Origin: an uncultured Campylobacter sp.
GTDB lineage: Bacteria; Campylobacterota; Campylobacteria; Campylobacterales; Campylobacteraceae
DNA length: 64,000 nucleotides
Direction of reading: 5' to 3'
Assembly (NCBI GenBank): GCA_963528245.1
Contig: CAURWB010000004.1
Coordinates: 774-64,773 of the forward strand
The notes under the pieces are model-generated. The model saw nothing but the letters and a program-made list of their open reading frames with translations. It made no database searches and had not been told where the DNA came from. Both the position numbers and the translations under genes were made by a program. This document shows, piece by piece, positions 1,583-62,752 of the stretch (positions are counted from its first letter, which is position 1; every line of letters begins with the position of its first letter).

Positions 1583-3252
1583 TTTTTAAGTTCCTTTAAA
1601 ATTTCGTTAATTTTTTTTAGTATCGGTTGCTTTTCTTCTAGCGAGATTTGCGACGCCGAATACTTTTTGTATAAATTTTTGTAAAATCTTGTTTTAAAAA
1701 ATTTTAGGTTTTGTAAAATTTCCTCCTCGTTTTTAAACGCCTCGTATTTTTCAAATATTATCTCGCGCACGGACGGATCGTTCGCGTCCGCTCCCGCCGC
1801 GATCGCTTCGTAGACTGCCCTGTGGCGCGCGAAATAATCGGGCTTTAAATTTTCTAAAATAAATTTTTTTAGACTCTCGTTTTCTATCATCGTTTTTAAA
1901 ATTTGGATTTCTAGCGGGTCTTTGCGTCCCGAGTTTGCGCGGAAATTTTGCGTTTCGTAGCCCTGCGCGTTTTGCTCCGTCCCGCCGTAGCCTTGCCGCA
2001 TCGGCGAATTTGATCCGCGTGAGAGGCGAAACGACCCCTCGGCTATCTTTAAAATTTTAGCCACGAGCGGCGCGTAGGAGTTTGCGACGACGGGTTTTAG
2101 GCTCGCGGTAAAGGCCTGGATCGCTTCTAGCGCTTTTTGCTTTTGCACGGGGCGCGAGAGGTCAAAGCCGCTAGCTAGATGCCTGATGTAAAATTCGCCG
2201 ATCTCCGTGCCGCTTTCAAAAATTTGCCGCAGATACTCTATCTTGCCGGCAACTACCATATCGGCCGGATCTGCGCCGCCCTCAATAATGACTACGCTGC
2301 CGTCGATTTCGTTTTGCGCGAGCAGCAGGGCGGACTTCGTCGCGGCATTTATGCCCGCATCATCGCCGTCAAAGCATAAGATAACGCTAATCTCGCCGCG
2401 TTTTAAAAGCGGCAAGTGCTTGGTAGTGAGCGCGGTTCCAAGCACTGCTACGACGTTGTTAAAGCCCGCCTTATGCAGCATGATGACGTCCATGTAGCCT
2501 TCGGTGATGATGATCTGATTTTTGGTGAAAATTTCTCGCTTTGCTAGGTGGTAGCCGTAAAAAAGAGTCGATTTGTCAAAAACCGCGGACTGGGGCGAAT
2601 TTACGTATTTAGCGGGGTTGCCGCTGATCGTGCGTCCGCCAAATCCCACCAGCCGCCCCGCATGCGTGTAGATAGGAAAGGTGATTCGGTTTATGAAACT
2701 CGCGTAAATGCCGTTTTCGTTTTGCTTTACGATGCCGACTTCTAGGGCTTCTTTGGGTTCGATTTGCTCGTTTTGCAGTAGCCTTATCGTCTGCGCGCTC
2801 TCGGGTGCGAAACCCAGCTCAAATTTATCTATCAGCTCGTCTGTTACACCGCGCGAGTAGAGATACTCCACGGCTGCTGGCGTTTTATAGAGCAGCGAGC
2901 GGTAAAAGGCGTTTGCGTTTTCTAGAATATGCTTGTTTTCCTTCGCCGGTTCGCCGCCTCGCACGTAGTTTAGTGTGAAATTTTGCAAACTAGCGATCTT
3001 TTCGACGGCTTCGGGGTAGCTTAGCTTTTCGTAGTCCATCACGAATTTGATCGCGTCGCCGCCGGCTTTGCACGAAAAGCAGTGAAATATCCCGCGCGAC
3101 GGGCTCACGCTCATGCTCGGGTTTTTATCGTCGTGAAACGGGCAGACGCACACGAAGTTCGCGCCACTTTTTTTCAGCGGCAGATAGTGCCCGACGACAT
3201 CGACGATATCGGTTTGCGCTTTTAGTCTTTCTATTGATTTTGGATCGATCAT
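1579..3252 (-). CDS. dnaG: DNA primase
   Basis: 557-aa ORF; CHC2 zinc finger CPFHDDKNPS...FHCFSC; Toprim motifs EGYMDV and DGDDAG. Confidence 0.95.
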   Translation of the reverse strand: MIDPKSIERLKAQTDIVDVVGHYLPLKKSGANFVCVCPFHDDKNPSMSVSPSRGIFHCFSCKAGGDAIKFVMDYEKLSYPEAVEKIASLQNFTLNYVRGGEPAKENKHILENANAFYRSLLYKTPAAVEYLYSRGVTDELIDKFELGFAPESAQTIRLLQNEQIEPKEALEVGIVKQNENGIYASFINRITFPIYTHAGRLVGFGGRTISGNPAKYVNSPQSAVFDKSTLFYGYHLAKREIFTKNQIIITEGYMDVIMLHKAGFNNVVAVLGTALTTKHLPLLKRGEISVILCFDGDDAGINAATKSALLLAQNEIDGSVVIIEGGADPADMVVAGKIEYLRQIFESGTEIGEFYIRHLASGFDLSRPVQKQKALEAIQAFTASLKPVVANSYAPLVAKILKIAEGSFRLSRGSNSPMRQGYGGTEQNAQGYETQNFRANSGRKDPLEIQILKTMIENESLKKFILENLKPDYFARHRAVYEAIAAGADANDPSVREIIFEKYEAFKNEEEILQNLKFFKTRFYKNLYKKYSASQISLEEKQPILKKINEILKELKK

Positions 3253-3294
3253 AAGCGAGATTATACAATCGTTTTGCTATAATCGGCGTTAAAT

Positions 3295-4341
3295 TTGACT
3301 TTAGAAAGCGGCATTTTGGATATATTTTTTATCGAATTTAGAGACCCGATTTTCGGTCTCGTGGTGCTAGTCGCCGCGGTGCTCGTGATCGCCGTTTTTA
3401 GCTACGCATGGGGCGTTTTTAAGAACAAAGACGAAAAGGCGGAGATCGCGGGATTTTTGAAAAAATTCGGCAAATCTCAGGGTCTGAGCGACGAAAACAA
3501 ACAGCTTTTGATAAACTCGGGTGCAGATACGGCTACGATGTGCTTTTTGGCGGGGACGTTTTCAAAAAGCGGGTATTTTGAAAAGGCTATCAACGTCTAT
3601 GCCGTGGCTTTGGAGCGGGCTAAAAACCGCACGGCAAAGGAGCAAATTTTCACCGATCTTGGTCAAACTTATTTTAAGGCGGGCTTTTTGGAGCGCGCAA
3701 AGAGCGTATTTTTAGAGGCGCTAAAAATCTCCCCGCGAAATCAAATCGCGCTAAAATCTCTAACGATAATTTTCGAAAAACTAAAAGACTACGAGGGCGC
3801 ATTGCAGACCCTGGATGCTTTGCAGGAGCTTGGCAGTGACGTGAGAGCGCAGACGGCGTATATCAAGGCGCTGCAAATTTTAGCGGATAAAAGCAAAGAT
3901 GAAACCGCTAAAATCGGCGAAATTTTAGCCCTAAAGGACGAATTTGCGCTCGTGCGCCGAATGGCGATGGAGAGGCTAAATTTAAGCGGCTCGGCTCTTA
4001 AAGATTTTGCCGATTTCCCGCCGCTTGAGGATGTTTTGGATTTGGTTTATTATCAAAACTCGCCCGTAAATTTAACCGATCCCGAGTATAAGAGCCTGTT
4101 TTTCGTAAAAGGCATGAGCGACGAGGACGGCGCACCGCTAGGCTTTGAGCTAGAGGTTTTAAAGAAGCTAAAAGCGGCAAACTACGACAAAGCCGCGCTT
4201 AGCTTTAACTACGTCTGTAAGAGCTGTAAAAACGCCTTTCCGATGCATTTTTACCGCTGTCCGATGTGTAGCGAGCTAGGCAGCGTGCAAATTTTGCCTC
4301 ACATCACGGAAAAACCCGATGAAAACAGTATGCCTTTTTAG
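3295..4341 (+). CDS. TPR-repeat protein with N-terminal TM helix and C-terminal zinc ribbon (LapB/YciM-like architecture)
   Basis: 348-aa ORF with a non-ATG start; hydrophobic N-terminus, TPR-like helical repeats, C-terminal CKSC...CPMC rubredoxin-like pair. Confidence 0.6.
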   Translation: MTLESGILDIFFIEFRDPIFGLVVLVAAVLVIAVFSYAWGVFKNKDEKAEIAGFLKKFGKSQGLSDENKQLLINSGADTATMCFLAGTFSKSGYFEKAINVYAVALERAKNRTAKEQIFTDLGQTYFKAGFLERAKSVFLEALKISPRNQIALKSLTIIFEKLKDYEGALQTLDALQELGSDVRAQTAYIKALQILADKSKDETAKIGEILALKDEFALVRRMAMERLNLSGSALKDFADFPPLEDVLDLVYYQNSPVNLTDPEYKSLFFVKGMSDEDGAPLGFELEVLKKLKAANYDKAALSFNYVCKSCKNAFPMHFYRCPMCSELGSVQILPHITEKPDENSMPF

Positions 4342-4756
4342 CGACGGCTCGTGTCTGGACAACCCGGGACCGGGCGGCTGGGCGTACATCCTAGAGTATG
4401 GCGAACACAAAAAAACTGCAAGCGGCGGCGAGGCACACACGACGAATAACCAAATGGAGCTGCGAGCCGCAATCGAAGGGCTAAAAGCGCTAAAACAGCC
4501 GTGCCGCGTAAAGCTCTACACCGATAGCTCATACGTCGCAAACGCCGTAAATGCGTGGCTAGAGGGCTGGGTGAAGAAAAACTTTAAAAACGTAAAAAAC
4601 GTCCCGCTGTGGCAGGAGTATATAAGCGCGAGCAAGCCGCACGAGGTCGAGGCGATCTGGGTCAAAGGCCACGCCGGGCACCCGCAAAACGAGCTTTGCG
4701 ACGAGATGGCGCGCGAGCAAGCCGTGAATATAAAAAATAGCTTAAAAGGCGAATAA
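4319..4756 (+). CDS. rnhA: Ribonuclease HI
   Basis: 145 aa; motifs DGSCLDNPGPGGWAYIL, NNQMELRA, YTDSSYV, GHAGHPQNE. Confidence 0.93.
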   Translation: MKTVCLFSDGSCLDNPGPGGWAYILEYGEHKKTASGGEAHTTNNQMELRAAIEGLKALKQPCRVKLYTDSSYVANAVNAWLEGWVKKNFKNVKNVPLWQEYISASKPHEVEAIWVKGHAGHPQNELCDEMAREQAVNIKNSLKGE

Positions 4757-5424
4757 TGCGAAATTTGGAAGAAAAATTAGGATATAAATTTAAAGACGAA
4801 AAGCTGCTAAAAACCGCGCTCACGCACAAAAGCGTAAAAGGCGGCGCAAACAACGAAAGGCTCGAGTTTTTGGGCGATGCGGTGATGGATCTGGTGATCG
4901 GGGATTATCTTTTTCACAAATTTTCGCGCCTAAGCGAAGGTGATCTAAGCAAACTAAGAGCCGCGCTCGTAAATGAAAAAAGCTTCGCCGAGCTGGCTAA
5001 ATATCTAAATTTGGGCCAACTCATCAATATCTCGCCCGCCGAGGAGCACAACGGCGGACGGCTAAAAGCTTCGATCCTATCAGACGCCTTTGAGGCGCTG
5101 ATGGGCGCGATCTACCTAGAAAGCGGCTTTGACACCGTGTGCGCGGCTAGCCTAAAAGCCTTTGAGAGATGCTACCCCGATATAAATTTCGACCGCATGG
5201 TCAAGGACTACAAAACCGCACTGCAAGAGCTAACTCAAGCGCGCTTCGCCGAGATACCAAAATACGTACTAGTGGGCTCAAAAGGCCCCGATCACAAGAA
5301 GGAATTTGAGATCGCGCTAATGCTAAACGAGCGCGAAATCTCGCGAGCCGCGGGCAAGAGCAAAAAAGAAGCCGAGCAAAAAGCCGCCAAAACCGCGCTT
5401 GAGATTTTGGGAGAGGGCAAGTGA
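4756..5424 (+). CDS. rnc: Ribonuclease III
   Basis: 222 aa; RNase III signature ERLEFLGDAV and a C-terminal dsRNA-binding region. Confidence 0.95.
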   Translation: MRNLEEKLGYKFKDEKLLKTALTHKSVKGGANNERLEFLGDAVMDLVIGDYLFHKFSRLSEGDLSKLRAALVNEKSFAELAKYLNLGQLINISPAEEHNGGRLKASILSDAFEALMGAIYLESGFDTVCAASLKAFERCYPDINFDRMVKDYKTALQELTQARFAEIPKYVLVGSKGPDHKKEFEIALMLNEREISRAAGKSKKEAEQKAAKTALEILGEGK

Positions 5425-6629
5425 ACACCTTTGGACGCAAACTAACGCTAACGACGTTTGGCGAGAGTCACGGAGTGGCGATCGGCGGCGTGCTAGACGG
5501 TTTTCCCGCAGGCGTGCGTATCGATTTAATTTTTATCCAAAGCGAGCTTGACAAACGAAGGCCGGGCGGCTCGAAATTTGCCACGGCCAGGAGCGAAGGC
5601 GACCGAGTGGAGATTTTAAGCGGCGTGTTTGAAGGCGTCAGCACGGGCACTCCGATCGGCTTTATCATCCGAAACGAAAATCAAAAATCGGGCGATTATG
5701 AAAATTTACGCGAGCTCTTTCGACCAGGGCACGCAGACTACGCCTACTACCGAAAATACGGCATCCGCGACCACCGAGGCGGCGGACGTAGCTCGGCTAG
5801 AGAGACGGCCGTGCGTGTGGCGGGCGGTGCGATAGCTCAAATTTTGCTGGGCGAATTTGGCGTCAGCGTACAAAGCGGCGTGGCTAGCGTGGGCGAAATT
5901 TCGTGCGGCGAGCAGCCGGATTTCGAGTTGGCGGCGCGCTCGGAGATATTTTCGCTAGGCAACGAAGAGGCGATGAAAGAGGAAATCCTAAAAGCCAAGC
6001 AGGAACACGACAGCGTCGGAGCTAGCGTCATCACGGTTATCCGCGGCGCGCCGGCCGGGCTTGGCGAGGGGCTATACTATAAATTTGATGCAGCCATCGC
6101 GGCTGCGATGATGGGCATAAACGGCGTCAAAGCCGTAGAGATCGGCGAGGGTGTAAACGCAAGCAAGATGCACGGCAGCGAAAATAACGACTCGATGAGT
6201 GCGGCGTATGCGCGCGTAAATTTGACCGACTCGGCTCTAGGCGGCTCGGGTGAGCTATCAAATTTAAACGGCAGCAAATTTGACGAATGCAAAAGCGAGG
6301 CGGACGGCGCGGCTTGCTGCGGCTCAAATTCGGACGAAAAATTCGGATTCGCCTCAAATCACGCGGGCGGAACGCTGGGCGGCATGACGAGCGGACAAGA
6401 AGTCGTGATAAAGACGCATTTTAAGCCGACTCCGTCGATATTTTTATCTCAGCCGACGCAAAACGTACGCGGCGAAGACGTCATCTGCGAGCTGCGCGGA
6501 CGGCACGATCCGTGTATCGGAGTGCGCGGTAGCGTCGTAGCAACCGCGATGGCGAGGCTAGTAACAGCCGATATGCTACTTTTAAATTTGAGCGCAAATC
6601 TAGCAAATTTAAAGAAAATTTACGACTAA
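5421..6629 (+). CDS. aroC: Chorismate synthase with an internal insertion of about 45 aa
   Basis: 402 aa; MNTFG..LTTFGESHG, RSSARET, SNHAGGTLGG, GRHDPC; about 40 aa longer than typical AroC (see finding). Confidence 0.93.
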   Translation: MNTFGRKLTLTTFGESHGVAIGGVLDGFPAGVRIDLIFIQSELDKRRPGGSKFATARSEGDRVEILSGVFEGVSTGTPIGFIIRNENQKSGDYENLRELFRPGHADYAYYRKYGIRDHRGGGRSSARETAVRVAGGAIAQILLGEFGVSVQSGVASVGEISCGEQPDFELAARSEIFSLGNEEAMKEEILKAKQEHDSVGASVITVIRGAPAGLGEGLYYKFDAAIAAAMMGINGVKAVEIGEGVNASKMHGSENNDSMSAAYARVNLTDSALGGSGELSNLNGSKFDECKSEADGAACCGSNSDEKFGFASNHAGGTLGGMTSGQEVVIKTHFKPTPSIFLSQPTQNVRGEDVICELRGRHDPCIGVRGSVVATAMARLVTADMLLLNLSANLANLKKIYD

Positions 6630-7386
6630 CTCCAAGATAAACCGCGCCCCAAACTAAGCTGAGTAAAACGGACGCTACGCGCGTTTGGGCGAGTCGGCCA
6701 CAAATACGTAAAATCCCGCCGCGAAATTTATAAAAAAATCGGACATTTTTGCGCGCGGCAAAGACGTTTGGCAAATTTATATTTATTATATAAATGGCGA
6801 GAAAAACGGCGTAACGGACATATTTTATATAAAAATATCTCACACGGCGGCTTAGAAAATTTGCTCGCAGGCGCCATAAAATATCTAAAATTTATGTAAT
6901 AAATCATAGAAAAACAGAGCGTGGCAAGGAGCTAGGAGCGCGTAAATTTAGACTCTTTAACCCTAACGGCAAGAAAAAGTACATCCTAAAAATACTTGCC
7001 AAACAGACTACAAGGCACGAAAATCTAAACCTTGGCACGATATTTATGCAGACGAGTCTATTTATGGCGTTTACGAGGAGTTTTGTAGATCTCTAAAACA
7101 TCTCCCGCAAAATAAGCCAAATTTGCAGTTTTACGCTACGTCGAACGGGAGCTGTCCTGGGGATCAGAAGTATGCGTAAATATCAAATTTACTCTTGTTT
7201 TCTTGTAAAATCAAATTCGACAACTAGGCCGTATTACATAAATTAGGTCACTCATAAGGTCGCCGATAAAACAGTTAAATTTAAAGACATTCTAGTTTTA
7301 GTTTTTTGATGTTCATATGAAAAATTCGTAAAATTTGCCGTCGCGCAAATGTTCAATCTATTTTACGAAAACAAGGCTGCACGAAG

Positions 7387-8047: not shown

Positions 8048-8983
8048 CTAAAACAGCCCGAAATTTTGCTTTAAATTCTCTTTGATAGGCTCAAGCGGTA
8101 GCGAAACTTCGCTATTTTTGCTGCCGACTGCACCGTCAAAAAACGTAATCCCGCTTGGCGAGAGCGTAAAATTTTCGCTCGGAGTTATCTTTTCTTTTGC
8201 GAAAATCGCAGTCAAATTTGCGTCGTTTAAATCCTTAAAAACGTCGCCAAAATTTATCTTTTTTAGATTTTTTAGCCAGACGGTTTTGCAGATTTTCCCG
8301 CCGGCGCTGACTTCACATACGCTTCTTATTTTGCCGTTTTGATACTCGAGGTTATTTAGCGCGTTTGCGGCGTTTTTTGAGGGGTCTTTGAGCCATGTCG
8401 TTTTAAAATTTTCAAGTTTTGCGGCGAGGGATTTTTTGTTATTTTGCGCAAATTTTGGTGCATAAAAGTCGCTCGCGACGGCTTCAAATCGCGCCCCGTT
8501 TCGTCCGATCTCTTGCAGTCCGAGCGCCATAAAATCATAGCTTGCGACCTGCTTTAGCACGGCTTTTCGCGCCTTGCCTCTGATTGCTAGCTTGCCCGTT
8601 AGTTCGCCGTTATCCGCTTTTACGCTTAGATTTAGCCACTCGGTGACCGCGTTTACGGCCGTTATATCGGCGCCCGATCTTTCGATGTTGCCTTTACTGA
8701 AGTCGTATCTGGCACCCTCAAAAAATGCGTGCCCTTGAAATTTGGGCGGCAAAATGGCGCCCTTGTCGCTAAAATTTTCAAACTCGACCTCAAGTTCGCT
8801 GATGTAGAGCTCAAATTTGCTCCCGTCCGCCTCGCCTGCAAATTTATAAATTTTACCCTCGTTTTCGTGCCTAATCTCGTAGCCTAGCACCAAAACGCAG
8901 GCCAAAAATATCGCCGCAACCGCTCTCACAACCGCTCCTTTTATATGCCCAGTGCCCAGCGTGAAAACGGCGCGACCTCGCAT
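8048..8983 (-). CDS. Membrane-anchored hypothetical protein (C-terminus weakly DUF3298/RsiV-like)
   Basis: 311-aa ORF; single N-terminal hydrophobic helix (AVAAIFLACVLVLGY). The 43-nt overlap with the upstream ATPase suggests a later real start. Confidence 0.5.
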   Translation of the reverse strand: MRGRAVFTLGTGHIKGAVVRAVAAIFLACVLVLGYEIRHENEGKIYKFAGEADGSKFELYISELEVEFENFSDKGAILPPKFQGHAFFEGARYDFSKGNIERSGADITAVNAVTEWLNLSVKADNGELTGKLAIRGKARKAVLKQVASYDFMALGLQEIGRNGARFEAVASDFYAPKFAQNNKKSLAAKLENFKTTWLKDPSKNAANALNNLEYQNGKIRSVCEVSAGGKICKTVWLKNLKKINFGDVFKDLNDANLTAIFAKEKITPSENFTLSPSGITFFDGAVGSKNSEVSLPLEPIKENLKQNFGLF

Positions 8984-10035
8984 TTTATGCCCTCGATGCT
9001 CGTCTCGCCGGAGTTTGCCACGCTGATTGCTTGTAGCCTATTTATACCTAAATTTTTTAAATTTGCGTGCAGTTTTTTAAATTTTAAAAAGACCAAATCC
9101 GCATCGCTAAACGGCGAGCAAATGATAGAAAGTTTCCTTTTTGGCAGGAAAAAATCAAGCTCTTTGGTATAAAAAATCTGCTCGTTAAATTTGGCCAGCT
9201 CGCAAAAAACCGTGTTGTTAAAATTTTTAGCGAAGTCCTTTTTTAGACTTAGTGCGCTTTTAAACGCAAAGTCGTTAAAATAAAGCCTTTTCGCGGCGTT
9301 TGGCTCGTTAAATTTTTCCACTAGGCTAACCGCGCTCATATTTTCTAGCTCGCTAAGCGCGCCGTAAACGCTATCTTTTGAGATTTTTCGGGTGGATTTT
9401 AGCGTGCTAAAAATCTCAAAGACGCTCACGTTTTGCGCCTGAGCTTTCGCGCACTCTTTTAGCACGGCTAGTTGCGTGGCGGATAGAGACGATTTTAGCG
9501 CGATTTGTAGATTTGCCGCGACGTTTTCGGCGTCGCAAAAGGCCGACGCAGGACTCCTGCCATGAAGCAAAAAGTGGCTAAAAAGCGTCTCGGGATCGAT
9601 CTTTTTTGAAAAAAAGGCGATAAATTCCTCGTAGTCTAAAAAATCCAAATTTAGCTCGTTAAAGCCGTTTAAATTTGTATCTTTAAACCGCGAGGCGACG
9701 ATAAAATTTGATAAATTTAGCTCCAAAATCGGCTCAAATTTATCCCAAAATCTCTTCTCGAAATCATCGATCGCTAGAATTTTTATCTGAGGATTTTGGC
9801 GTAAAAACTCGGGCAAATTTGACAAAATATCATCCGCATCTATGCGAAGGTCGCCTAAATTTACGTACAAAAACTCTTTGCTCTCAAATGCCGATAAAAA
9901 ACCCGCGATCAGCGAGGTTTTGCCGCTTCCTATACCGCCCTTTATCAGCGTTTTTGGCGCTGTGATTTCAAATTTTCTATTTATAAATTTGACGTTTTTC
10001 GGCGGGCTTTGGTAGAGAGCGTTTAGAGTTTGCAT
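8941..10035 (-). CDS. P-loop ATPase (AAA/DUF4143-like ATP-binding protein)
   Basis: 364 aa; Walker A GGIGSGKTS and Walker B-like ILAIDDFE. Confidence 0.65.
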   Translation of the reverse strand: MQTLNALYQSPPKNVKFINRKFEITAPKTLIKGGIGSGKTSLIAGFLSAFESKEFLYVNLGDLRIDADDILSNLPEFLRQNPQIKILAIDDFEKRFWDKFEPILELNLSNFIVASRFKDTNLNGFNELNLDFLDYEEFIAFFSKKIDPETLFSHFLLHGRSPASAFCDAENVAANLQIALKSSLSATQLAVLKECAKAQAQNVSVFEIFSTLKSTRKISKDSVYGALSELENMSAVSLVEKFNEPNAAKRLYFNDFAFKSALSLKKDFAKNFNNTVFCELAKFNEQIFYTKELDFFLPKRKLSIICSPFSDADLVFLKFKKLHANLKNLGINRLQAISVANSGETSIEGIKCEVAPFSRWALGI

Positions 10036-21068: not shown

Positions 21069-21826
21069 TGGCTATAACCATCATGCAGCCAAACGACATA
21101 GAGAAGATGCGAGCGGCGAATAAAATCGTCGCTCAAACCCTCGACTACGTAGAAAGCGTGATCAAGCCCGGCATCTCACTGCTCGAAATAGATAAAATTT
21201 GCGAGGATATGATAAGGTCCGCAGGCGCAAAGCCGGCATTTAAGGGGCTTTACGGCTTTCCAAACGCCGCTTGTATCAGCGTAAACGAAGTAGTCATCCA
21301 CGGAATCCCGAACGAATACAAACTACAAGAAGGCGATATCGTAAGCGTCGATATCGGCTCAAATTTGAACGGATACTTCGGCGATTCGGCTAGAACTTGG
21401 GGCGTGGGTCAAATTTCGCGCGAAGACGAAAAGCTGATCGCTTGCGCCAAAGATGCGTTATATTTTGCGATAGATACCGTAAAAGCAGGAATGCACTTTA
21501 AAGAGCTTAGTTTTGAAATCGAGAAATTTATAAGAGCTCGCGGATTCGTTCCGTTAACGGGATTTTGCGGTCACGGCATCGGTAGACGCCCACACGAAGA
21601 TCCGCAAATTTTAAATTATTTAGAGGGCGGTAGCCCAAAATCAGGACCTAAAATTAAAAACGGAATGGTATTTTGCGTGGAGCCGATGATCTGCCAAAAA
21701 GATGGCACTCCGGTGATCGGTCACGACAAATGGAAAGTAACTAGCAAAGACGGGCTAAGAACCAGCCACTACGAGCACTGCATGGCAGTCGTAAACGGAC
21801 GTGCGGAGATCTTAAGTCTAGCGTAA
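21068..21826 (+). CDS. map: Type I methionine aminopeptidase
   Basis: 252 aa; metal-ligand context VDIG, GHGIG, EPM. Confidence 0.96.
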   Translation: MAITIMQPNDIEKMRAANKIVAQTLDYVESVIKPGISLLEIDKICEDMIRSAGAKPAFKGLYGFPNAACISVNEVVIHGIPNEYKLQEGDIVSVDIGSNLNGYFGDSARTWGVGQISREDEKLIACAKDALYFAIDTVKAGMHFKELSFEIEKFIRARGFVPLTGFCGHGIGRRPHEDPQILNYLEGGSPKSGPKIKNGMVFCVEPMICQKDGTPVIGHDKWKVTSKDGLRTSHYEHCMAVVNGRAEILSLA

Positions 21827-21830
21827 AATT

Positions 21831-21870
21831 TTAAAATTTACAAATCGTTTGCGCGACTTGTAAATTTTAA
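21831..21870. repeat. 13-bp perfect inverted repeat between map and infA (possible terminator or operator)
   Basis: TTAAAATTTACAA (21831-21843), 14-nt loop, TTGTAAATTTTAA (21858-21870). Confidence 0.4.
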
Positions 21871-21951
21871 AATTTTAATTTGTGGTGAGTTAAAATTTTA
21901 AATCCAAATTTCCGCCCAGCGGCGAAAGTAAATTTAACAAAAAGGAGTTAA

Positions 21952-31468: not shown

Positions 31469-32647
31469 ATGCAAAATCAAAATTTAGCGGTAAAATCAAA
31501 ATTTAGTAGTAATGATCAAATTTGCGTTCAAAGCACGGCGAAATCGTCAAATTTGAGCGAGTCGCAGGCGCTGCCGAAGGATCAAATTTTAGCTCGCAGT
31601 TCGCGCGCGAGCTCGTACCAAAACCGCTCTCAATTTTTAAACGCGAACAAAGCTAGAATAAACTCCGAAAATCCGACTCAAAGCCCGAAAAACAGAGCAA
31701 ATTTGATCTCGCTCAACGCGGCAAAAGGCTCGTGTTTTACCTCGGGCGCAAATTTACAGCCCGGCATAAATCAAACGGCTCTGAGCGCCGCCGATCAGGA
31801 CGCGCTTTTGGCCGAGTTTAAGGCGTTTTTGAATGCGCATTTACCAAGCTCGCCTAGCTTTCATCCGTGCTTTGACGACGCGCTTTCCTACACGCTAAAA
31901 TCGGGCGGAAAGCACTTTCGCGCGATGCTGGTCGCAGGCGTCGTAGCGGCGGTGCGTCCCGAGCGCAAAGAGGCGGCGTTTCACGTAGCGCTGGCATTTG
32001 AGACGATGCACAGCTACTCGCTCATCCACGACGATCTGCCGGCGATGGACGACTCGGATCTGCGCCGCGGACAGCCTAGCTTGCACGTCAAATTTGACGA
32101 AGTGACGGCGATCCTAGTGGGCGACGCGCTAAACACCCACGCCTTTTATCAGATAGCAAGGGCTCCGCTGGATGCGGACGCGCGCATAAAATGCGTCGAG
32201 ATCCTAAGCCGCAACGCAGGTATCTACGGCATGGCGCTGGGGCAGGCGGTGGATTGTTATTTTGAAAATCAAAAACTAGGGCTTGAAGAGCTAAAATTTT
32301 TGCATATCCACAAGACCGCGCGCCTCATCGCGGCGAGTTTGCAGGCAGGCTGCGTCGTGGCTGGGCTAGACGAGGCGGAGGCTGCGCGTATCTACGATAT
32401 CGGGCTTGATCTGGGGCTGGCGTTTCAGATCGCAGACGACATCATCGACGCGACGCAAAGCGCCGAAACGGCGGGCAAGCCGACGCATAACGACGGCGCT
32501 AAAAACTCCTTTACCAACCTTCTTGGCGTGGAGGGCGCGGTGCAGGCTAAAAACGAGCTCATCGCAAAGATAGAGCGCGAGCTAGGCGGCGTGCATGCGG
32601 GCATACGCGCTATCGTGACGGGCCTCATCGACAAGCATTTGCGGTAA
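31469..32647 (+). CDS. ispA: Polyprenyl (farnesyl/geranyl) diphosphate synthase; the ORF carries a 113-codon low-complexity 5' extension
   Basis: 392-aa ORF; LIHDDLPAMDD and FQIADDIID aspartate-rich motifs. Homology to IspA begins near codon 114 (TTG 31808). The ATG at 31469 has a GGAG Shine-Dalgarno. Confidence 0.85.
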   Translation: MQNQNLAVKSKFSSNDQICVQSTAKSSNLSESQALPKDQILARSSRASSYQNRSQFLNANKARINSENPTQSPKNRANLISLNAAKGSCFTSGANLQPGINQTALSAADQDALLAEFKAFLNAHLPSSPSFHPCFDDALSYTLKSGGKHFRAMLVAGVVAAVRPERKEAAFHVALAFETMHSYSLIHDDLPAMDDSDLRRGQPSLHVKFDEVTAILVGDALNTHAFYQIARAPLDADARIKCVEILSRNAGIYGMALGQAVDCYFENQKLGLEELKFLHIHKTARLIAASLQAGCVVAGLDEAEAARIYDIGLDLGLAFQIADDIIDATQSAETAGKPTHNDGAKNSFTNLLGVEGAVQAKNELIAKIERELGGVHAGIRAIVTGLIDKHLR

Positions 32648-62436: not shown

Positions 62437-62752
62437 GCTCTCTCCTGCTCAAATTTATCAAATTTAACTCCCGCAAAATCTCGTCAAATTTGAACTTTCG
62501 CTTGCTTTTCATCTTTCTTTCAAATTTGCTCAAATTTAATATCTCTTATCAAAAATGGCTTTGTATTAAATTTTAATAGCCCTCTATAAAATGCCCAAAT
62601 ATACGCGATTTAAAAGTGATTTTAAACTTAAAAATGACATTTTTAAAATGCCCGGAGAGCAAATTTCGGTCACTAAATTTTAAGCCAACTTTGCTAAAGC
62701 ATTAGATATACTTCCGAAATTTTTTGTTAAAAAGTAGCTGGAGGGCGGGTGG

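Follow-up and report, generated by a model that had tools for sequence, protein, structure and literature searches.

The chorismate synthases of Campylobacter jejuni (1SQ1) and Helicobacter pylori (1UM0) are 55–62% identical to AroC of Campylobacter showae and have a common fold with it (template modelling (TM) score 0.92–0.94), with all conserved motifs present, but they hold 3 residues at a site where C. showae AroC has ~49. Additions of this kind have two described counterparts, namely the Rickettsia palindromic elements (RPEs), which likewise place ~140 nt in frame within a housekeeping protein at a tolerant site, and the indel-prone disordered loops of conserved enzymes. In addition, the hexamer family RAATTY is methylated in C. 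jejuni by the orphan methyltransferase CtsM and needed for DNA uptake (PMC10046745, PMC8468864), while in Campylobacter fetus its methylation is universal and its sites are abundant, with 24,750 counted (PMC13436318). Here we examined the aroC gene within a 64,000-nucleotide stretch of an uncultured Campylobacter sp. (assembly GCA_963528245.1, contig CAURWB010000004.1, positions 774 to 64,773 of the forward strand), which we refer to as the window and number from its first letter. An earlier note, made from the sequence of this window, had proposed that aroC contains an in-frame insertion of spacer-like DNA bearing AAATTT hexamers, resembling an RPE. We find the insertion to be real and probably a clade-specific, translated and disordered loop expansion, which would evolve by slippage and unequal recombination while carrying a selected hexamer at close to intergenic density.

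The aroC gene spans 5421..6629 on the forward strand and encodes a chorismate synthase of 402 aa, with a GTG start that overlaps the stop codon of the preceding open reading frame (ORF), 4756–5424. Its product, like all of its matches, is assigned to PF01264 in precomputed annotation and is a full-length family match to both C. jejuni 1sq1 (E = 7.8e-129) and H. pylori 1um0 (E = 2.9e-118). A protein identical to the 402-aa product occurs in genomes of C. showae, the species to which the window belongs, and the nearest genomes in the species collection were C. showae CC57C and many oral Campylobacter metagenome-assembled genomes (MAGs), at 88–95% identity. The invariant residues G14-E15-S16-H17, R101-P102, H104-D106, G120-R123, N313, G316-G317 and R361-P364 are all kept. 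Using HMMER against 1sq1 and 1um0, the aligned blocks corresponded to query residues 1–260 and 307/310–402 with only 3 target residues between them, which gives a net insert of ~46 aa at nucleotides ~6198–6341. Likewise, all alignments to 11 solved chorismate synthases ended at query residues 258–262 and the second block, where given, restarted at 307–310, while relatives that lack the insert have an AroC of 354–363 aa. The insert (residues 260–307; 6198..6341, forward strand) thus lies between NND (255–257) and SNHAGGTLGG (312–321), as the earlier note had placed it, and is of low complexity, rich in S, A, G, N and D, and predicted to be disordered.

We use C. showae group as the label for the clade that carries the insert, which we sampled as 41 distinct alleles drawn from genomes and metagenomes. 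All 41 have the insert at one site, with lengths of 84, 111, 132, 135, 138, 141, 147, 150, 159, 162 and 177 nt, every one a multiple of 3. It is absent from the nearest outside lineage (L027), which is 78% identical outside the insert and groups with Campylobacter sp. CCUG 57310, the RM16187 group and 'C. canis'; it is absent also from C. concisus, C. jejuni/coli, Helicobacter (H. pylori), Arcobacter relatives and Sulfurospirillum. Furthermore, nearly all of the best 150 representatives at 50% identity interrupt their alignment at the same point as the solved structures. The alternative raised in the earlier note, that a homologous segment of the same length is found across the Campylobacterota, therefore does not describe these data, in which both the sister lineage and the outgroups are without the insert.

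The same AroC loop has also been enlarged elsewhere. A separate 16-aa insert (RASKDAIRTNGGKIGAN) occupies it in another oral Campylobacter clade, and further inserts lie at this position in the representatives P0134, P0139 and P0175. Similarity between the showae insert and those of the other lineages was not significant, and in the homology test against the 16-aa insert only NGGK was held in common (p = 0.13), so that a shared origin is unsupported. Because other lineages bear inserts here that lack significant similarity to it, the loop is a recurrent site of expansion, at which the showae insert is a clade-specific gain and not an ancestral Campylobacterota loop. The 16-aa-insert clade (L051–L064, L066–L068 and L072) has 60% AroC identity and an insert that ends in GCAAATTTY, and forms a cluster of n=578 in the protein collection. 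P0134, a 410-aa chorismate synthase representative, has a tandem DSMNF repeat in its own loop insert together with a long C-terminal extension.

We examined the structural context of the insert using AlphaFold2. A run with only 15 near-identical sequences gave a predicted local distance difference test (pLDDT) score of 28.5 and was discarded, and the rerun used 127 diverse sequences. The resulting model had a mean pLDDT of 83.6 and a predicted TM score (pTM) of 0.84, with residues 264–307 as the sole segment below 50. The model matched 1um0_A with E = 4.8e-39 and a TM-target score of 0.92, and its core superposed on 1um0 and 1sq1 with TM scores of 0.92–0.94. The insert is therefore modelled as an unstructured loop and is probably disordered in the protein. 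A review of chorismate synthase structures held no residue-level account of this loop. Across the 41 alleles the ratio of non-synonymous to synonymous substitution rates (dN/dS) was 0.59 in the insert, compared with 0.087 and 0.075 in the N-terminal and C-terminal parts of the protein, respectively, with similar dS values in all three.

The length variation of the insert bears out the suggestion in the earlier note that it is expandable, with a range of 84–177 nt that includes a tandem duplication as well as deletions. In a codon alignment of 30 genomes, the allele with a 63-nt deletion (L024) is flanked by two GACGGCGCG repeats, and the common 15-nt deletion (EADGA) has GCG triplet microhomology at its borders. 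In the window GACGGCGCG, a short GC-rich direct repeat, lies at 6303..6311 (family D2 of our repeat search), and its upstream partner at 6240–6248 is degenerate there but intact in most alleles. The long alleles (L026, P0084 and P0116) are a tandem of both types of 5' part, joined at the conserved 13-mer GGCGTAAATTTGA and forming a 27-nt tandem. Together with L084 and L085, these three alleles read as the window-type VNLTDSAR followed by the alternative GVNLSADNP, with GGCGTAAATTTGA at the junction, and look like products of unequal crossover. Tandem Repeats Finder detected no array in the insert, where the repeat search returned only hexamer-centred 11-mers and weak GC-rich repeats, and no promoter-like site, terminator-like site or Rfam family was found in it. 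The longest insert, of 177 nt, is that of L017 (aroC at 1433–2671 of MAG contig CAUPYN010000195.1), which contains an in-frame TAA stop (GAA->TAA, KFD*CK); the gene is a pseudogene unless this stop is an error of the assembly or consensus.

The three exact AAATTT copies reported in the earlier note are all present, in the contexts GTAAATTTGAC (6218), TCAAATTTAAA (6260) and GCAAATTTGAC (6276), as is the degenerate one, with AAATTC occurring at 6326 and 6339. Copy 1 (6218..6223) is read as gtA AAT TTg (V-N-L), is intact in 78% of strain comparisons and is AAATTC in some alleles. Copies 2 and 3 lie together in a conserved DNA island, CAAATTTAAACGGCAGCAAATTTGACGAAT (6259..6288), which encodes S-N-L-N-G-S-K-F-D-E; they remain unbroken in 96% and 100% of strain comparisons, respectively, compared with 35% for other hexamers of the insert. 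The degenerate fourth copy (AAATTC, 6326..6331) is AAATTT in about a quarter of alleles, which creates an S/L polymorphism in the codon alignment. In that alignment the codons between copies 2 and 3 are variable (G, G/S, D, E), while dS over the core SNLNGSKFDE is 0.083 and elsewhere 0.26–0.31. The density of AAATTT in the insert is 20.8/kb in the window and has a mean of 21.4/kb over the 41 alleles, which is ~3x the 7.7/kb of the remaining aroC sequence and ~4x the coding average. Since no hexamer is commoner in the window than AAATTT, three copies within 58 nt are unremarkable, and the cluster exceeds chance only weakly, as a modest local excess in a motif-saturated genome.

Indeed, with 468 copies in 64 kb (7.3/kb) where base composition predicts 22, AAATTT is enriched 20.8x and its count is more than twice that of the second-commonest hexamer. 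ORFs carry it at 4.9/kb and the remaining DNA at 18.2/kb, which is 3.7x denser. The flanks show a preference for YAAATTTR, with TAAATTTA exceeding expectation 42x and CAAATTTG 45x, and among related hexamers GAATTC, CAATTG and TAATTA are depleted in the window while AAATTC and GAATTT are enriched 2–3x. Enrichment of AAATTT reaches 28x in the showae group, 34x in the 16-aa clade, 17.5x in L027 and 13x in C. concisus, and is weaker further out, at 4.6x in L030/L065 and ~1–3x in Sulfurospirillum. We found no account of this enrichment in a literature search on the motif in Campylobacter.

We assessed the conservation of the hexamer over the interval 2421–6629, where third-codon positions were 97.6% conserved inside AAATTT, compared with 83.8% at other third positions (p = 6e-9) and 78.4% at other A/T-ending third positions. 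The hexamer as a whole gave the same picture, with AAATTT kept intact in 94% of comparisons, whereas other all-A/T hexamers reached 81% and hexamers of any kind 68%. Because both its third positions and the whole hexamer exceed their controls in conservation, AAATTT appears to be under purifying selection at the DNA level.

The window contains 41 clusters of at least three AAATTT within 58 nt, and 8 of its 72 ORFs hold one. A second cluster in aroC lies at the 3' end of the gene. The other in-gene clusters are mostly in weakly constrained parts, namely the C-terminal domain of DnaG, N-terminal tails, the linker that precedes a PAS domain and two ORFs without a Pfam match, with one cluster located inside a carbonic anhydrase Pfam domain near the 3' end of the gene. 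This arrangement fits an accumulation of AAATTT where the protein allows it.

We compared the loop expansion with three other explanations of the insert. The one put forward in the earlier note, by which a small mobile palindromic repeat of the RPE type, related to the AAATTT intergenic arrays, has colonised aroC in frame, we regard as highly improbable. It would account for the entry of ~140 nt into a housekeeping gene at a loop that tolerates them, for the spacer-like density of AAATTT and for the polymorphic length; and, as in RPEs, the ORF is continuous, the lengths stay in frame and the insertion occupies a tolerated position, the only low-pLDDT segment of the protein. However, when the insert was aligned to the rest of the 64-kb window with blastn-short, the best match scored 28.2 bits over a 14–18-nt seed around the hexamer and was no better than those of 60 random 144-nt control segments (27.1 +/- 2.3 bits), of which 43% scored at least as high as the insert. 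On alignment, the segment described as spacer-like DNA thus lacks similarity to the spacer arrays, an outcome that the earlier note had named as refuting its reading. These arrays (e.g. 317–561 and 17697–17877) are irregularly spaced AAATTT in unrelated AT-rich DNA and not repeats, and they have only the hexamer in common with the insert, whose composition is that of its gene (54.9% GC and 58% GC at third codon positions (GC3), against 55.3% and 61% for the whole of aroC and 21–34% GC in the arrays). As single-stranded DNA the insert folds at -26.7 kcal/mol, with shuffled sequences at -25.5 +/- 2.6 (z = -0.47), so hairpin potential is absent. The 25-nt conserved core was not found outside aroC in the window, where it is single copy, or in 22 fetched genomes, each of which has it once, and the metagenome collection gave 15 exact matches, all 15 of them inside aroC. 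No second copy of the insert, such as a multi-copy family would have, was found in the window, in the loci of the fetched genomes or in metagenome contigs, the search having covered these sequences and not whole genomes. Nor is presence patchy among relatives, since every one of the 41 alleles has the insert at one and the same position. Unlike an RPE, the aroC insert is therefore, in the sequences searched, single-copy, non-palindromic, never absent within its clade and without similarity to any other locus.

Selection for a functional peptide module is a different matter and, although in our view unlikely, fits several of the observations. Such a module might be a cysteine-containing metal or redox loop, or a docking loop for flavin reductase beside SNHAGG, with the NLNGGKFDE island reflecting constraint on the peptide. 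The insert directly precedes the conserved SNHAGG(T)LGG motif, it is retained in every one of the 41 alleles and never falls below 28 aa, its dN/dS lies below 1, and C299 is nearly invariant, N303 invariant and NLN/KF nearly invariant. Against this, the conservation of the island extends to synonymous sites, as the dS of its core shows, and is limited to the AAATTT hexamers, matching the DNA-level pattern of the gene as a whole, with variable codons in between. Moreover, the L024 allele has lost the island altogether, the cysteines are replaced (by Y, W, R or F) in several alleles, pLDDT is below 50 throughout the insert and one MAG has a stop codon within it. Capture of the segment from intergenic DNA, or its acquisition by horizontal transfer or recombination with another gene, followed by amelioration, seems to us less probable again. 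The AAATTT density of the insert does equal the intergenic value and no internal donor was found within aroC, but GC and GC3 equal those of aroC and differ from the GC of the spacer arrays, and nothing similar occurs in the window or the locus flanks, although these are a small part of the genome. The search for an internal donor within aroC paired GSKFDECKSEAD with GSKFATARSEGD at the protein level, with a shuffle p = 0.06, and at the DNA level gave p = 0.19, neither of which is significant. The resemblance of the insert peptide GSKFDECKSEAD (6267–6302) to AroC residues 50–61, GSKFATARSEGD (5565–5600), is the sole hint of an internal donor.

We therefore favour, with good confidence, the expansion of a translated and disordered loop that is specific to the clade and that holds a selected hexamer. 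The loop joining the NND turn to SNHAGG(I/T)LGG would have expanded on the branch to the C. showae complex, after the split from the lineage of Campylobacter sp. CCUG 57310 and RM16187. It would then be translated as a low-complexity and probably disordered loop with much relaxed constraint on the protein, and its length would have changed through replication slippage and unequal recombination at short direct repeats of two kinds, GC-rich repeats such as GACGGCGCG and the conserved 13-mer GGCGTAAATTTGA. Slippage may likewise have given rise to the insert in the first place. Its AAATTT copies would be ordinary copies of a hexamer selected genome-wide, read as N-L or K-F, and not relics of an inserted element, and they may reach about intergenic density (~21/kb) because the loop tolerates almost any residue.

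In its properties the insert resembles the indel-prone disordered loop insertions known from conserved enzymes. It has a fixed site in one clade while other lineages have expanded the same loop independently, its lengths change in steps of 3 with microhomology at the borders, its dN/dS is relaxed and its predicted order low, and the catalytic core is unchanged. Unlike such loops, it holds islands that are conserved in the DNA rather than in the peptide, made up of the favoured AAATTT hexamer of the genome. Disordered loops that belong to one lineage and vary in length are well known from housekeeping enzymes, and the aroC insert is a fresh example.

Several points weigh against this explanation. 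The source of the first ~140 nt is one of them, as we found neither a donor sequence nor a clear internal duplication. The retention of the insert, with complete loss never seen among the 41 alleles, and a dN/dS that stays below 1 would allow some function for the peptide. The loop is likely to be solvent exposed, as its low pLDDT and its tolerance of insertions suggest. The hexamer conservation test covers ~4 kb around aroC only, and the strain comparisons behind it are phylogenetically non-independent. Finally, a role of AAATTT as a RAATTY site, considered below, presupposes methylation and a CtsM orthologue in C. showae.

AAATTT fits RAATTY and is abundant (7/kb), enriched in the closest Campylobacter and not in Sulfurospirillum, and conserved at synonymous sites, as a motif under selection in the DNA should be. 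By analogy it may be selected in C. showae as a site of RAATTY methylation or uptake, and the pattern seen here plausibly represents the signal known from C. jejuni. The comparison has its limits, in that C. showae strongly enriches only the AAATTT form with Y/R flanks, and methylation-dependent uptake is known for C. jejuni while the likeness in C. showae is one of motif sequence. More generally, AAATTT can be compared to highly iterated short palindromes or uptake sequences such as HIP1 or the DNA uptake sequence (DUS). A further possibility, which we put forward tentatively and think somewhat less likely to be right than wrong, is that the disordered aroC loop acts as a parking place for DNA-level signals. 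AAATTT would be kept there for the DNA, as a methylation or uptake motif or as a site for a nucleoid protein, and not for the peptide, and the hexamer islands would be where unequal recombination finds the homology to lengthen or shorten the loop. Genome-wide, the density of AAATTT in coding sequence would then be set by spare protein constraint, so that selection on the motif might help to shape lineage-specific loops and tails.

The window also contains other features marked by the hexamer. AAATTT-rich stretches occur at 317–561, 10849–10976, 17697–17877, 21826–21930 and 62451–62568. Two reverse-strand ORFs, 8048–8983 (311 aa) and 8941–10035 (364 aa), are without a Pfam match and have AAATTT at 11.8 and 13.7/kb, respectively, the highest or near-highest densities of any ORF, and may be poorly conserved genes or non-genes. 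In the polyprenyl synthetase ORF at 31469–32647 on the forward strand, 133 residues precede the Pfam domain and an AAATTT cluster covers residues 4–27; the start as listed probably lies too far upstream, in which case the cluster would be intergenic. Directly 3' of aroC, ~750 nt (6630–7386) are without an ORF of at least 100 aa on the strand of the gene, and homology among genomes of the showae group is lost from ~6900 onward, at either a synteny break or a variable region.

Taken as a whole, the extra 46 residues of AroC are a marker of the C. showae complex clade and form a hypervariable and probably harmless loop, not a mobile element. In annotation, in phylogenies based on AroC and in models of the enzyme as a drug target, residues 260–307 should be handled as non-homologous. 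The broader point concerns AAATTT itself, as its enrichment of 20–30x and its conservation at synonymous sites in GC-richer oral Campylobacter are the signature expected of a motif selected in the DNA. If AAATTT is indeed the RAATTY signal, its density along genes could report local constraint on the protein, and it would help in studying how uptake and methylation motifs shape coding sequence.

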